A stretch of 64,000 bases of DNA from Pseudoxanthomonas sp. (GTDB taxonomy: Bacteria > Pseudomonadota > Gammaproteobacteria > Xanthomonadales > Xanthomonadaceae): assembly GCA_036383995.1 (NCBI GenBank), contig DASVNG010000029.1, positions 2,351 to 66,350 of the forward strand. Reading direction: 5' to 3'. Positions 39,713 through 45,051 of the stretch are shown piece after piece (positions within the stretch are counted from its first letter, which is position 1; every line of letters starts with the position of its first letter). A program made the position numbers and the translations under genes. The notes beneath the pieces were generated by a model. It was given only the letters and a program-made list of their open reading frames with translations, ran no database searches and had not been told where the DNA came from.

Positions 39713-39948
39713 TGCAGTAACTCCTGATAGGGAACCGGCCGCCAGCTTTGGTAAAGGCGGTTGCCCGGCTGCGGGAGCGGCTGGGCGATGGTTCCGGGGT
39801 TGGGCCTCCCTGCGGCTTCCGTGTCCGAACCCCTTGATTCCATTGGGAATCTTGGGGCACCCCGGCACGGGCTGTGGCAGCAGGTGTGTATTTGCCGGTG
39901 TCGCCCGGCATGGGCGGTCTTGCGGGTTTGGCCCGACAAAGCCGCGGA

Positions 39949-40011: not shown

Positions 40012-41997
40012 CTAACGCTGCCGGCGCGCGCCGATGTCCACCCGCGCAGCTTGCCGTACCACCACCTGGATCACGCGCTGGGCAGTTGCGTCGTCGATGT
40101 ACCAGGGCAAGGGCAGGTTGTCGGGCACCACGGTCACCCGGTGAGCGCCCGCGGCGACCCGGGGAAACTCGAAATTGCCCAGGCTGTCGGTGCGCGCGGC
40201 GTAGCGGCCGTCCAGCAGCACGGTGACGTTGGCGGCGGGCTGTTCGGAGGCGGCGCGAACACCATCGCCGTTATCGTCCAGGAACAGGCTTCCGACGACC
40301 GAACCGGTAGGGCCGCTGGAGGCGCCGCCCAGCACCGCCTGTGGCCGCCCGGCGCTGCGTTCATAGCGCAGGCTCAGGAATACGGAACGGTCGCGCGGCA
40401 GGGAGATGAAAGGAGTTTCGGTGACCAGCGGATCCAGGACGAAGGGAGAACGTTGCGATCCCGTACTCTGATAAAGCGCTGCGTTCACCGACCAGCGCGG
40501 GGTCATGCGCCAGTTCACGCCCAGGTTGAAATCGGTGCCCCGGACCGCGCCATCGCCGTCGCCATGGGTCCATCGCGCGCTGCCGTCGATCGACAATCTA
40601 TTGCTGAGATCGCGTCCGCCGTACATCGAAACGGTGGCCGCGCGGGTCGGCTCATCCTGGTCTTCGTATCGCAGTTCGCCATAGGCCAGCGAAACCGAAA
40701 GGCGTGCGCCTTGTTGCAGCGGCAGCGCCTGGTCCACGCTGACCTGCCAACTGTCCGCCTCGCCGTCGGCGCCGGCCTGGTCCACTTGCACGCGGGTTTG
40801 ACCCCAGGCGGTGCTTTTGTCCAGGAACAACTGCACGCTGTGCGCAGTGGTGGTGGAATGGCGCAGGTTGAGGCTGGCACCGTAGCCCAGAGTGCTGTTG
40901 GCCTGGTATCGCGCGAATCCGGTGGCGTAAGTGCCGTCGAAACCGGCGCCGGAGATGGACTCGATGCGATCCACGCTGGCGTTCCAGATCCAGCGCGCGT
41001 ACTGGTAGGCGATACGGTAGTAGCCGCCCTGGATGTCGTTGTTGATCGGCAGCGCGCCCCAGGAAAGATCCGGCTGCAGGCGATAGCCGCCGTAGTTGTG
41101 GGTATAGCGTCCGCGCCGCGAGCTGGCGTCGACCCATGCGCCAGCGGCGTCGCCGATGTCGCTTTCGCTGGCCAGTACGTTCAGTTGCACGCCGTCGCGT
41201 TCGCCTTGCCAGGCGGTAGCGGCATAGAGCGCTTGGGTGTCGCCTTGTTCGAACACCGCTTCGCCACGGTCGTCGGGCACGATCCGGCCATGCGTGCCCA
41301 GGAACGAAGCGGCGCCGCTCCATTGCGGAGCCCATCGCCATTGCGCACCCAATGACGCGGCTTCGCCATCGGCCAGTTCGAAGCCGACCATGCGGGTACC
41401 GTTGTACAACCCGGCGCGGCCGAAGGAGCCTTGCAGCAACAGCCCGCGCCGGTCGTCCTGCCACTCGCTGCTGACGCCGGCGAAGGCCACTGTCGGCAGA
41501 AAGAAGCGGTATTGGCTGCGCTGCATGGGCGTGGAGGGCGTGTTCAACACGCCAAGTCCATTGTTCACCCGCCAGCCGCCGTCCAGGTACAGATCGCGTT
41601 GCCACAGCGTGGCTGCGCCGTCGAGTCCGCCCTGGCGGCCCTGCAGTCCGTCGTAGCGCCTGCGGTCGCTGTCGAACAGGGTGGCGTCGAGCGAGAACGC
41701 ACCCCAGGAGTCGGTTTCCCAATAGCCGCCCGCGGCGATGCCGTGTTCGTCGTAGTGGTCGTCGCCGCGCTCGTTGCGGCTGGCCAGCAGTTCCACGTGC
41801 AAAGAACGCGGCAGGCCGCTGCTGTCCTCTTCGGCATCATGGTCAGGCGGCAACGCCTGCAGGTTCTGCGGCGCGATGATCCGGTCGCGGTACGACGGAG
41901 CCGCCTCGGTCTCCTGTGCGCCGGCGTTGCGCATCGCCAGAATGCCGGCGATGCCCAGGGCGAGCGCCAGGCGCGGATGGGCGTTTCGCGAAATCAT
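40012..41997 (-). CDS. Secreted 661-aa outer-membrane beta-barrel candidate with C-terminal carboxypeptidase-regulatory-like/Ig-like domain (cluster gene E)
   Basis: ATG 41997 overlaps the gene D stop (ATGA). Signal peptide MISRNAHPRLALALGIAGILAMRNAGA. Long run of alternating aromatic/Gly beta-strand sequence (YGGYRLQPDLSWG, GGYYRIAYQYARWIW, FNLGVNWRMTPRWSVNAALY). C-terminal ~90 aa is GSLFLDDNGDGVRAASEQPAANVTVLLDGRYAARTDSLGNFEFPRVAAGAHRVTVV. Confidence 0.6.
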   Translation of the reverse strand: MISRNAHPRLALALGIAGILAMRNAGAQETEAAPSYRDRIIAPQNLQALPPDHDAEEDSSGLPRSLHVELLASRNERGDDHYDEHGIAAGGYWETDSWGAFSLDATLFDSDRRRYDGLQGRQGGLDGAATLWQRDLYLDGGWRVNNGLGVLNTPSTPMQRSQYRFFLPTVAFAGVSSEWQDDRRGLLLQGSFGRAGLYNGTRMVGFELADGEAASLGAQWRWAPQWSGAASFLGTHGRIVPDDRGEAVFEQGDTQALYAATAWQGERDGVQLNVLASESDIGDAAGAWVDASSRRGRYTHNYGGYRLQPDLSWGALPINNDIQGGYYRIAYQYARWIWNASVDRIESISGAGFDGTYATGFARYQANSTLGYGASLNLRHSTTTAHSVQLFLDKSTAWGQTRVQVDQAGADGEADSWQVSVDQALPLQQGARLSVSLAYGELRYEDQDEPTRAATVSMYGGRDLSNRLSIDGSARWTHGDGDGAVRGTDFNLGVNWRMTPRWSVNAALYQSTGSQRSPFVLDPLVTETPFISLPRDRSVFLSLRYERSAGRPQAVLGGASSGPTGSVVGSLFLDDNGDGVRAASEQPAANVTVLLDGRYAARTDSLGNFEFPRVAAGAHRVTVVPDNLPLPWYIDDATAQRVIQVVVRQAARVDIGARRQR

Positions 41998-42797
41998 CGG
42001 GACAGCGTGGTCTCGATGTCCAGATGCTGCTTGCCCCAATCCAGGCGGCCCTTCAGCTGCACGGGATAGGCCGGCGCCGGCGGGGGGGCGTTCTCGCTGT
42101 CGCCTTGCGGAGTGAGCGGGATATCGCGGGTTTCGCCGGGCAGGATGGGAAGGGTCGAAGGCGCGAACGCATAGGTCTTGCCACTGCCGTCCTTGCCATC
42201 GACGAAACCTTGCAGACGCGCATGCGCGTTGCCGGCATTGCGTACCAACAGCACCGGCACCAGTTGGCCATCGATGGTCTGCAGTTTCTGTCCGGCGATC
42301 GAAAGCTGTGGGGCGGCATCGCCCAGGGTGAGGTAGACGATGACGCCGATGCGGCCGGAGACCGGTATGGCCACGCCACCGGCGACGTTTTCGGGATCGC
42401 TCTCGATCATGATCGCGAAACGGCATTCGCCGCTGGGCGCATCGGCCGGCACTGCGACTTCGAAGCGGTAACGTTTCTTGGCGTTAGGGCCCATGTTCAG
42501 TTCGCCCGCTTCCACCCCGACCCAAGGGCGGCAACTGCCCGGCGCCAGGGCTTCGGAGAACTGCACGGTGTTGTCCGATTGCAGTGTCCAGTCCGCCGTT
42601 TTCACGGTGTAGTGGGCGGCCTTGTCGGAAACGTTGGTGATTTCGATGACGTCGCGGTAGGTTTCGCCGGCCTTGGCGTTGTCTTCGATGCGCGGTGGCG
42701 AAACCAAAGCGGAGAACCCTTGTGCCCAGGCAAAGCCGGGGGCTAGGCAGCACAGCGCGAAGAAGATTCGGCACAGACGGTGTCGTTGCGTGGACAT
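41994..42797 (-). CDS. Secreted two-domain beta-sandwich protein, periplasmic chaperone candidate (cluster gene D)
   Basis: 267 aa; the ATG 42797 overlaps the gene C stop by 1 nt. Signal peptide MSTQRHRLCRIFFALCCLAPGFAWA. VSPPRIEDNAKAGETYRDVIEITNVSDKAAHYTVKTADW and RIGVIVYLTLG resemble PapD-like or DUF916-like Ig strands. Confidence 0.5.
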   Translation of the reverse strand: MSTQRHRLCRIFFALCCLAPGFAWAQGFSALVSPPRIEDNAKAGETYRDVIEITNVSDKAAHYTVKTADWTLQSDNTVQFSEALAPGSCRPWVGVEAGELNMGPNAKKRYRFEVAVPADAPSGECRFAIMIESDPENVAGGVAIPVSGRIGVIVYLTLGDAAPQLSIAGQKLQTIDGQLVPVLLVRNAGNAHARLQGFVDGKDGSGKTYAFAPSTLPILPGETRDIPLTPQGDSENAPPPAPAYPVQLKGRLDWGKQHLDIETTLSR

Positions 42798-43273
42798 CAG
42801 GGCGTTCCCAAGTCGATTTCGAACGCGAACGCCAGTTGCTCGTCGCGTCGGAGTTTGCTTCCGTCTGCCTGGATCTCCAGGCGCAGGGTGTCTTCGATGG
42901 CGTCGGTCTGGATAGGACCGGCATAGACCAGGGTGCGCTCGCCGCTGCGCAATTCGCCCGGCAACAGGCGGCCCTGCGTGGTCCATCGGGTGGAAACGGC
43001 GGCGGCGGGCCGCATCGGAACGGTCAGGTAGATGCGGGCCTGGCGGCCTTTCCACGGAGAGACGTCCAGACGCACGGCCACGGCGATTTCGCCGGCGACG
43101 TTCGTAGCCAATCGGCCGCGCGCTGCGGTCGGCTGCGGTTTCAGGCGCAAGGTGCCGCCCAGGATCTGGCTGGCGCTGTCGTCGACCCGGTAGGTTTGCG
43201 CAACGGCCGGAGCGATGCACGCTGCCAGAGCGGCGGCGGCAACCGCTGCGAAAAACGACGCGCGCCTGTTCAT
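42797..43273 (-). CDS. Small secreted beta-rich protein (cluster gene C)
   Basis: 158 aa; ATG 43273 overlaps the gene B stop (ATGA). Signal peptide MNRRASFFAAVAAAALAACIAPAVA. No recognisable family. Confidence 0.55.
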   Translation of the reverse strand: MNRRASFFAAVAAAALAACIAPAVAQTYRVDDSASQILGGTLRLKPQPTAARGRLATNVAGEIAVAVRLDVSPWKGRQARIYLTVPMRPAAAVSTRWTTQGRLLPGELRSGERTLVYAGPIQTDAIEDTLRLEIQADGSKLRRDEQLAFAFEIDLGTP

Positions 43274-43905
43274 GGCACCGTCAACGTGTAGGTCACGCGC
43301 CCGTTGTAGACGCCTGCCGCAACCATGTTGTTGTTGCGGTACGAAAATGAGTGGCAGCTTTCGCGCCAGGTATTGACCGGGAAGCTAGCCAGGGTCTGGG
43401 TGCCGCCGGTGAAGGCGCCGGCCGGGAAGGGTTGCGCACCGGTGTCGCCGTTGCCGCTGCTGGTCCAGGTGATCTGCGAGAACGGAATGCTGTCGCCCGC
43501 AACTGTGGTCAGGCTTGCGGGCGCGGTCACGCTCAACGTGCCCGTTCCACCCGACAGCAGCCCGCCGCGATTGAAGCCGCCCACGTAGATTTCCGCCGGA
43601 ACGTTGCAGAACGCAAAGCCGTCGTAGTTGCTGTTGGGCTGGGTTCCGTTCCCGGTCATCGGCAAGGCCGTGCCGTTCCCCAACTGCGCAGCGGGCACGG
43701 TGACCGACACCAGGTTGATGCCGCCGCCAGAGCCAGGCGTCCCATTCGAGCTGAAGGTGCCGGTATAGACGCCGTTGCCGACCCGCAGATAGACCGACGG
43801 GGTCAGCCCATTGGTGATGTTGACGGTGAAGGCTTGGGCCGTCGACGACGTTCCGGCGACGGCCAGCAGGCAGAGCGCCGCAGCGATTGGATTTCTGGCT
43901 TTCAT
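43270..43905 (-). CDS. Secreted Gly/Thr/Asn-rich subunit-like protein B (paralogue of A)
   Basis: 211 aa. Signal peptide MKARNPIAAALCLLAVAGTSSTAQA. Shares the YLRVGNG, INLVSVTVPAAQLGNGT, GDSIPFSQI and C-terminal YNGRVTYTLTVP motifs with gene A. Confidence 0.65.
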   Translation of the reverse strand: MKARNPIAAALCLLAVAGTSSTAQAFTVNITNGLTPSVYLRVGNGVYTGTFSSNGTPGSGGGINLVSVTVPAAQLGNGTALPMTGNGTQPNSNYDGFAFCNVPAEIYVGGFNRGGLLSGGTGTLSVTAPASLTTVAGDSIPFSQITWTSSGNGDTGAQPFPAGAFTGGTQTLASFPVNTWRESCHSFSYRNNNMVAAGVYNGRVTYTLTVP

Positions 43906-43920
43906 GCGGGACTCGGGCAG

Positions 43921-43955
43921 AAAAAAAGGGAGCCGGTTAGCAACCGCCGGCTCCC
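43921..43955 (-). terminator. Rho-independent terminator between cluster genes A and B
   Basis: On the minus strand: gggagccgg - 10-nt loop - ccggctccc, followed by TTTTTTT. It sits 26 nt after the gene A stop and 16 nt before the gene B ATG. Confidence 0.75.
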
Positions 43956-43980
43956 TCCGGACCTTGCGAATACGCAGCGA

Positions 43981-44604
43981 TTACGGCATCGAAGCCGTGT
44001 AGGTGACACGCCCGTTGTTGACGCCGACGCCGCCGTAGGTGCCTGGAGCCGCCACCGCGCCGTTGGCGTAGGTGTAGGTCCAGCGCGCATCGCGGTTCAC
44101 CACTTTGCCGGTGACCGGGGTCAGGGTCAGGGTGCTTGTGGCGCCATCGACCAGGGCCGGGTGCGGCAGCGCCGTGGCCGAGGTCAGGGCGGCCACCGCG
44201 GTGCCGATCTGCCCGTAGGAGATCGTGTCGCCTGCGCCATTGCCCAGCGCGCCCAGGGTGGTGGAGGTGAAGGTGATGTTGCCGTTGTTGCCTACCACCT
44301 TGGCGGTCACGGTGCCATTGCCCACATCGCCCGAGCCGGCGGTAGCGGCCACGGGGGTGCCGTCGCCCAGGTTGGCGGCAGGAACGTTGAACGAAATCAG
44401 GTTGATGGCGGCGTTGGTGGTGAAGTCCGCGCCAGTACCGACGCGCAGGAACAGGATCTTGGGAACGGTGATCTGGAAGTCCAGGCGGGCTTGGGCGGTG
44501 ATCGGGGTGCCGGTACCGGTGGTGTAGGTCGACTCAGCGCTGGCTGCCAGCGGCATCAAAGCCAGGACGGCGGCAGACAGGAGGGCCTTGCTGGAAATGC
44601 GCAT
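43981..44604 (-). CDS. Secreted Gly/Thr/Ala-rich subunit-like protein A (candidate major subunit)
   Basis: 207 aa from ATG 44604, with AAGGA ~10 nt upstream. Signal peptide MRISSKALLSAAVLALMPLAASA. Motifs FLRVGTG, INLISFNVPAANLGDGT, GDTISYGQI and C-terminal NNGRVTYTASMP. The track ORF start at 44826 is an extension. Confidence 0.65.
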   Translation of the reverse strand: MRISSKALLSAAVLALMPLAASAESTYTTGTGTPITAQARLDFQITVPKILFLRVGTGADFTTNAAINLISFNVPAANLGDGTPVAATAGSGDVGNGTVTAKVVGNNGNITFTSTTLGALGNGAGDTISYGQIGTAVAALTSATALPHPALVDGATSTLTLTPVTGKVVNRDARWTYTYANGAVAAPGTYGGVGVNNGRVTYTASMP

Positions 44605-44806
44605 GCTTTCTTGATCCTTAAAAAGGGCGATGGGAAGTAGTGGAAGGGTTGCCAGGCTCAACAATGGGCGTCCGTCTAATCGACGGATCCCAATAAATCC
44701 CTTTAGAATCAGGCTGATGCCGCGTGCGAGTGTGTGTAGGCAGAACTCTTGCCAACCCCGGCTCCCCCCGGCAGATCCTGTCGTCAGCACCCCGGCGGAG
44801 GCTGAT

Positions 44807-44873
44807 GTGAAAGAATTTTCACCCATTAGCGTGGAAACTGTGACTCAAATTTGTTGAAAATGTGACCAGTTTC
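44807..44873. promoter_or_regulatory. AT-rich palindrome/direct-repeat block upstream of cluster gene A (divergent from map)
   Basis: gtgaaa-gaat-tttcac (44807-44822). gaaactg (44834-44840) is inverted to cagtttc (44867-44873). That inverted pair encloses two (c/a)tgtgac repeats at 44838 and 44860. Confidence 0.4.
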
Positions 44874-45051
44874 TCTATTTAAATGTACTAAAGCACTTGC
44901 TCAGCTGAGAACACCGTCACATCGCTGCATGCGGCGATGAGAGTCCTCGGGCTGTCGCTGAATGGCCCGTTAGGGACCCACAACGGCCCCGCAAGCCTTG
45001 CCCATCGGGGGGTTTGTTCAGGAGTAAAGCGAAATCGGCGATAATCCAAGC

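Follow-up and report, generated by a model that had tools for sequence, protein, structure and literature searches.

What kind of envelope system is encoded by the five genes that lie between rpsB and map in Pseudoxanthomonas sp., and does it belong to a class that is already known? The genes, here termed A to E, occupy positions 40012 to 44604 of contig segment DASVNG010000029.1 (assembly GCA_036383995.1, positions 2,351 to 66,350 of the forward strand), and this whole stretch of 64,000 nucleotides (nt) is called the window in the following and supplies all coordinates. An original prediction from the sequence had described the genes as an orphan operon of secreted proteins that mimics the gene order of chaperone-usher (CU) operons and might form an undescribed fibre or secretion system. 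Based on comparisons of sequences and structural models, we propose with modest confidence that the cluster encodes a non-canonical, donor-strand-type CU-like system, which would build a surface polymer of protein A. The system is real and conserved, and apparently an undescribed variant of a kind of machine that is already known.

The largest product, protein E (40012..41997, minus strand; 661-aa precursor), was modelled with AlphaFold2 (predicted local distance difference test score (pLDDT) 77.9, predicted template modelling (TM) score 0.72). In this model about 26 beta-strands span residues 64-549 and are followed by an immunoglobulin (Ig)-like beta-sandwich of the CarboxypepD_reg/SdrD-B-like type at residues 564-659; according to the model, E forms a large barrel in the outer membrane and carries an Ig-like C-terminal domain on the periplasmic side, and the outer-membrane barrel of the original prediction is recovered. 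When the model was compared to the PDB using Foldseek, ranks 1-16 were all occupied by FimD and PapC, the ushers of type 1 and P pili, at E-values from 1.7e-14 to 2.5e-8. Since FimD and PapC fill these ranks, modelled E resembles ushers more closely than any other solved barrel. On the sequence level, E is no canonical usher, as had been anticipated: PF00577 gave no match at E<=1, a profile of E retrieved no usher from the PDB sequences at E<=10, where the UafA B-like domain was the sole match, and the only Pfam match was a sub-threshold one to CarboxypepD_reg (residues 580-654). Residues 20-57 are disordered in the model yet conserved. Two segments of E, residues 28-60 and 512-535 (window 40470-40540), are highly conserved and of low model confidence; residues 512-535 are a candidate gating loop and residues 28-60 a candidate chaperone-docking peptide, which would stand in for the plug and the N-terminal domain of ushers, respectively.

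The next class of Foldseek matches to E, from 3.5e-8, comprises generic barrels (OprD, the 26-strand MtrB and TonB-dependent transporters), and these matches speak for an uptake or export channel unrelated to fibres, in which E would be a large porin and D as well as A to C would be periplasmic or secreted binding proteins. We consider such a channel highly improbable: the best usher match is better than these barrels by about six orders of magnitude, a TonB box, a plug, a cytochrome motif and an enzyme domain are all absent, and a paralogous pair of Gly/Thr-rich beta-sandwich proteins with pilin-like termini would be atypical for binding proteins. A cytochrome sheath of the MtrB type was rejected as well, as haem motifs are absent and B shows only a chance-level match to MtrC_N.

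The paralogous pair is formed by A (43981..44604, minus strand; 207-aa precursor) and B (43270..43905, minus strand; 211-aa precursor), whose families align in hhalign at 99.9% (E 3.4e-36). Protein A, the presumed major subunit, is composed of a signal peptide (residues 1-23), an N-terminal extension (24-50) and a beta-sandwich (51-205) with the end ...GTYGGVGVNNGRVTYTASMP. In its AlphaFold2 model (pLDDT 74.4) residues 18-50 are coil. The extension carries alternating hydrophobic residues (L-D-F-Q-I-T-V) and, though unstructured in the monomer model, is conserved at 0.64 versus 0.55-0.60 for the core. The top Foldseek matches of A are weak (E 0.02-0.2) and mostly donor-strand pilins, comprising the PapG pilin domain, FimA, CsuA/B, PsaA and the Pyrobaculum bundling pilus; no match was found in Pfam or among the PDB sequences. 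A has more than 1423 homologues and is about 74% identical even in Usitatibacter (Betaproteobacteria). Two to three tandem copies of A are found upstream of B in loci of Arenimonas, Variovorax and other betaproteobacterial genomes (L024, L036, L038-L040, L075, L076, L079), and tandem copies are also known for major pilins.

While A is free of cysteine, B contains two, C100 and C184, which are invariant, as is W147. B has a short N-terminal strand (FTVNIT) and the C-terminus GVYNGRVTYTLTVP, and an ending of the type Yxxx(V/A)TYTLxxP was found in 64 of the 78 homologues of B. As YxxxVTYTLxxP it marks the B-type subunits of all lineages and recurs on small proteins of remote clusters. B remained without a match in Pfam and PDB sequence searches. 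The third small protein, C (42797..43273, minus strand; 158-aa precursor), shows a conserved mature N-terminus, (T/S)(Y/F)xVDDSASQVL, and the end ...FxFEIDxxxP; it aligns with A at 28% and with B at 17% in hhalign and forms its own small family, with no Pfam or PDB match and no detectable relatives in these searches. We rejected C as a lipoprotein, for which LAAC in its signal peptide would have spoken, because this cysteine is not conserved among the homologues. Whether C serves as a minor subunit, an adaptor or a terminator is a guess. In Pfam scans of the whole families, no recurrent family appeared in 24 A, 38 B and 33 C members, and the 24 A and 38 B members matched none of the fimbrial, SCPU, DUF4402 and WxL models even at E<=10, which bears out the earlier placement of both proteins outside the established pilin families.

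The gene order does mimic that of CU operons: subunit A, an attenuator, subunit B, the small protein C, the chaperone-like D and the barrel E. Type 1 and P pili (FimA/FimC/FimD and PapA/PapD/PapC) likewise have the major subunit gene first, followed by an attenuator and the minor subunits, and likewise combine a periplasmic two-Ig-domain protein with a large outer-membrane barrel and no ATPase; the likeness extends to their ushers as the best structural matches of E and to CU pilins as the best, weak, fold matches of A. The presumed attenuator is a hairpin that resembles an intrinsic terminator by sequence and RNA fold (43921..43958, minus strand), in which 12 bp are followed by U7 within the 75-nt spacer between A and B (free energy -23.4 kcal/mol, z -2.05; equally good folds in 7/200 shuffles). 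A spacer of 50-270 nt between A and B is maintained in 67/67 loci examined, and 14 of the 67 have a hairpin with a T5 run in it, among them two close relatives (L002, L003) and five loci from Betaproteobacteria (L072, L074, L077, L078 and L080). We presume from its sequence that the hairpin attenuates transcription after A and raises A relative to B-E.

Protein D (41994..42797, minus strand; 267-aa precursor) belongs to a large family, for which one search returned 2400 homologues and another 2725 representatives of clusters formed at 50% identity, and some of its homologues carry the UniRef labels 'molecular chaperone' or 'pili assembly chaperone N-terminal domain-containing'. PapD_N and PapD_C gave no match in D or 64 diverse relatives. 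PF06030 (WxLIP_PGBD, DUF916) matched 28 of 65 diverse D members, but no match reached the curated cut-off (1.2e-5 at best and 0.072 for D itself). A D profile broadened to 65 members, and only this profile, retrieved EfmWxLIP1 (9i25_C, 9i1y_A) from the PDB at E 4e-6, and hhalign of D against four WxLIPs of plasmid WxL clusters gave 96.2% (E 2.3e-9) over 218 columns and both domains. On these sequence comparisons D is a two-Ig-domain periplasmic protein remotely homologous to the Gram-positive WxLIP (DUF916+DUF3324, PF06030 and PF11797), in which the two Ig-like domains are mutually perpendicular (PMC10599100), and the periplasmic beta-sandwich foreseen for D takes the form of a two-domain Ig-like protein. 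The C-terminus of D (...DIETTLSR) has neither a hydrophobic tail nor a membrane helix of the WxLIP type, and the missing helix is consistent with a soluble periplasmic protein. No report of the connection between D and the WxLIPs of Gram-positive WxL clusters was found in the searchable literature, nor was a paper on PDB 9i1y/9i25. A plasmid WxL protein compared to the PDB, with the question of whether 9i25 contains a WxL chain, gave no match. As a separate observation, an unannotated ORF (open reading frame) at 101986-102474 of CP069367.1, a plasmid labelled Klebsiella pneumoniae, is 62.8% identical to Enterococcus EfmWxLIP1; this may reflect a wrong host label or a gene transfer across phyla.

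The relationship of D to WxLIP brings in the main rival explanation, namely that the cluster is the diderm counterpart of the WxL (Csc) complex. WxL clusters encode small and large WxL proteins, a WxLIP (DUF916-DUF3324) and an LPXTG protein; correspondingly, A and B would be WxL-like and D WxLIP-like, and they would form a non-polymeric, peptidoglycan-associated complex with E as its outer-membrane anchor or display pore. Besides the significant homology of D across both domains, the position of the WxLIP-like gene after the subunit genes, as in plasmid WxL clusters, argues for this explanation, and so does the C-terminal motif of the B-type subunits, the sequence of which resembles the distal WxL motif YXXX(L/I/V)TWXLXXXP (PMC5817068) with Tyr replacing Trp. 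Furthermore, binding of peptidoglycan has been reported for WxL domains (PMC9772566), and the E-like protein of a remote cluster (L087) carries a peptidoglycan-binding OmpA domain. We nevertheless consider a WxL-like complex unlikely. The WxL model PF13731 remained unmatched at E<=10 in 24 A-family, 38 B-family and 8 remote small proteins, and a relationship of A and B with WxL domains found no support in hhalign (2-5%) and hmmsearch in both directions. Of the two WxL motifs of such domains, only the distal one has an echo in the cluster. Whereas plasmid WxL clusters possess both the WxLIP membrane helix and an LPXTG protein, D lacks the helix, and neither an LPXTG protein nor a sortase was found among the five genes, the latter in line with the original prediction. 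Moreover, the diderm cluster adds a barrel of about 26 strands with ushers as its best matches, which suggests translocation of folded subunits, and the attenuator after A together with the tandem A copies suggests a need for one subunit in large excess, which fits a polymer.

For the donor-strand-type system that we favour, the following course of assembly can be envisaged. Transcription would begin in the spacer upstream of A, and the hairpin after A would halt most transcripts, leaving A in excess. In the periplasm, D would act as a strand-donating chaperone that binds unfolded A, B and possibly C and lends a beta-strand, for which GRIGVIVYL (residues 148-156) is a candidate, to their incomplete sandwich. 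This step follows the AlphaFold2 prediction for the WxLIP-WxL pair, in which a WxLIP strand fills the gap in the WxL sandwich (PMC10599100), and strand complementation would be a trait that both systems share. Acting as a minimal usher, E would then receive the D-subunit complexes at its periplasmic domain or at its conserved N-terminal segment. Donor-strand exchange would follow, in which the D strand gives way to the conserved N-terminal extension of the next A, and the growing chain would leave through the E barrel. The roles of minor subunits (tip, adaptor or terminator) would fall to B, with its presumed disulfide bond and short N-terminus, and to C.

Several results weigh against this proposal. 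The ushers of type 1 and P pili possess 24 strands, an N-terminal domain, a plug and two C-terminal domains, whereas the model of E shows about 26 strands, no folded usher N-terminal domain, no insert of plug size and a single C-terminal domain, and its TM-scores with ushers in Foldseek are only 0.3-0.4. For A, Foldseek found nothing at E<=1e-3, the negative comparison of A and B with WxL domains counts here as well, and the fold of D is deduced from sequence homology. The conservation within the cluster is likewise unexpected: A is its most conserved gene (L068, P0305 and P0318 among the loci; 71% identity in Dokdonella versus 43% for E) and surpasses both D and E in conservation when distant taxa are compared, while classical major pilins, including those of type 1 and P pili, show the opposite pattern. 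Lastly, no Pfam link to CU families was found for A-E or their relatives, and hhalign comparisons with profiles of six fimbrial chaperones, five ushers and 14 pilins of E. coli K-12, taken from loci L081-L085, gave 19.5% for the D family against the chaperones, with an alignment off-register, 3.3% for the E family against the ushers and 7.3% for the A family against the pilins. These profiles represent the gamma-type E. coli families only, and the archaic and alternative classes, including Csu, were covered by Pfam models only.

Since no curated Pfam or NCBIfam cut-off was reached by A-E and the hhalign values are this low, the cluster does not fall into a known CU class, and membership in a classical CU family is unsupported at the sequence level. 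Searches of the PDB sequences with single proteins and narrow profiles from all five families returned nothing useful. The cluster could still be an extremely diverged member of an established CU class, for instance of the archaic (sigma) class, that is missed by profiles. Such a member would agree with ushers as the top structural matches of E, with the UniRef label 'pili assembly chaperone N-terminal domain-containing protein' on some D homologues, with faint Pfam matches to MSP and ASH of the PapD clan in a few D relatives and with the appearance of EcpB when the PDB was searched with the D profile, though this match is non-significant (E 0.62). Archaic CU systems such as Csu are also widespread in environmental Proteobacteria and contain several small paralogous subunits, and CsuA/B is among the weak Foldseek matches of A. 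However, PF00577, PF00345, PF02753, PF00419 and PF05229 found zero matches among about 130 family members scanned, so that at the level of Pfam the SCPU (PF05229), PapD and Usher models of the archaic class remain unmatched in A-E and their relatives. The low hhalign values, the missing N-terminal and plug domains that define ushers, and the position of D, which has WxLIP and not PapD as its closest significant relative, likewise speak against a diverged CU member, which we regard as improbable. No description of the cluster was found in the searchable literature. Two published systems, the 'novel CU system' of Synechocystis (bioRxiv 10.1101/130278) and a cyanobacterial tubular pilus cluster (PMC12397347), are set apart by their different components, as judged from their descriptions.

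In the taxonomic sense the cluster is no orphan, contrary to the original prediction. When one genome of each species was scanned using the D alignment, 80 loci were obtained, on which A-E were located by tblastn. The loci stem from Lysobacteraceae (Pseudoxanthomonas, Luteimonas, Lysobacter, Thermomonas, Arenimonas, Marilutibacter, Vulcaniibacterium and Dokdonella) and from Betaproteobacteria (Variovorax and metagenome-assembled genomes (MAGs) of Burkholderiales), and the closest homologues, in Pseudoxanthomonas, are 85-94% identical. The order A-B-C-D-E and the strand are constant in essentially all of the 80 loci that are long enough for judgement, and on this basis the cluster is a conserved, co-inherited module. 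Co-inheritance is thus strong, as it extends over about 80 species genomes and reaches remote lineages. Two loci, L025 from a MAG labelled Chitinophaga pinensis and L067 from a MAG labelled Rhizobium sp., hold clusters of the Lysobacteraceae type, with D 59% and 52% identical; these contigs are probably mis-binned.

Remote relatives of D occur in similar clusters of unrelated metagenomic lineages, next to a pair of small proteins and an E-like protein, the latter of which comprises 742 aa in L086 and 903 aa, with an added OmpA domain, in L087-L089. Local hmmsearch in the remote clusters gave 2.5e-23 and 3.4e-21 for the E family and 1.8e-11 and 3.5e-11 for the B family. The OmpA peptidoglycan-binding domain lies at the C-terminus of the 903-aa protein (L087:8851-11562; E 8.5e-13). 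In L090-L092, two small proteins and a D relative are accompanied by a 316-aa protein in place of the E-like barrel; this protein, encoded after the D-like gene (L090:2306-3256), has a subunit-like end, ...GTYRLVVTYEARPAP.

With respect to the genomic setting, the window encodes tsf and rpsB on its minus strand, map and glnD on its plus strand. The starts of rpsB (MPQVTMRQ..., 39712) and map (45052) are 5.3 kb apart, as had been noted, whereas in another Lysobacterales genome (L021) map adjoins rpsB with a gap of 263 bp. The location between map and rpsB holds for this genome and is no general rule, since it is found only in a subset of genera and loci. The GC content of the operon (0.65-0.68) is the same as that of its flanks (about 0.66), and recent horizontal import was therefore dropped as an explanation. 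All five ORFs on the minus strand between rpsB and map were present at the predicted positions. The ATG starts of A, D and E lie within longer mechanical ORFs and are supported by the lengths of their homologues (E 653-669 aa, D 264-269 aa, A 204-210 aa; coverage 95-100%) and by tblastn alignments in related loci that start from residue 1. Judged by their sequence features, all five products bear Sec signal peptides, as originally proposed, each with a basic n-region that has one or two K/R within the initial 8 residues, with a hydrophobic core (Kyte-Doolittle mean of 2.5-3.0 for the best 10 residues) and with a cleavage site of the AxA type (ASA/E, AQA/F, AVA/Q, AWA/Q and AGA/Q). The junctions indicate that B to E are translationally coupled: direct reading revealed an ATGA overlap of 4 nt at B/C (CCATGAAC), an overlap of 1 nt within TGATG at C/D (CCCTGATGTCC) and an ATGA overlap of 4 nt at D/E (CGATGATT), within the predicted range of 1-4 nt.

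The spacer upstream of A (44605..45051, minus strand; 447 nt), divergent from map, is the presumed promoter and regulatory region. Its GC content dips to 0.56-0.59 versus about 0.66 in the flanks, and an AAGGA Shine-Dalgarno sequence is located about 10 nt ahead of the start codon of A. Since a consensus scan found no sigma-70 site on the minus strand, a promoter upstream of A is only what we infer. At the other end of the operon, a sub-threshold match to the Rfam t44 RNA (39799-39906, minus strand; 36.1 bits versus a gathering score of 44, E 3.9e-5), which we take to be the leader of rpsB (S2), and a perfect TATAAT at about 39945 were found, the latter inside the 299-nt spacer between E and rpsB. 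From these two elements it seems that rpsB keeps its own promoter and leader, with the operon upstream of both.

Beyond this genome, the cluster could tentatively stand for a wide class of donor-strand systems for surface assembly that has gone unrecognised in diderm bacteria and whose chaperone shares ancestry with the WxLIPs of Firmicutes. If this holds true, WxL clusters and CU-like machines would be two envelope-specific versions of one ancient module of subunit and chaperone, and the minimal barrel E, which has no plug, would count as an usher of a new type. The classification of CU pili leans almost wholly on ushers and chaperones that Pfam can recognise, so that a widespread system which escapes these models would be invisible to current surveys, and the scale of the D family, with its thousands of representatives, underlines this gap. 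The link between D and WxLIP leads to the testable hypothesis that the poorly understood WxL clusters of Gram-positive bacteria are chaperone-subunit systems, and E, as a barrel with one Ig domain, would help in comparing how ushers are gated and how they catalyse polymerisation. A surface fibre would not usually be as conserved as the presumed major subunit A, which is about 74% identical between Gamma- and Betaproteobacteria; this hints that A has a conserved role, structural or ecological, in bacteria of soil and water, Lysobacter and its relatives among them.

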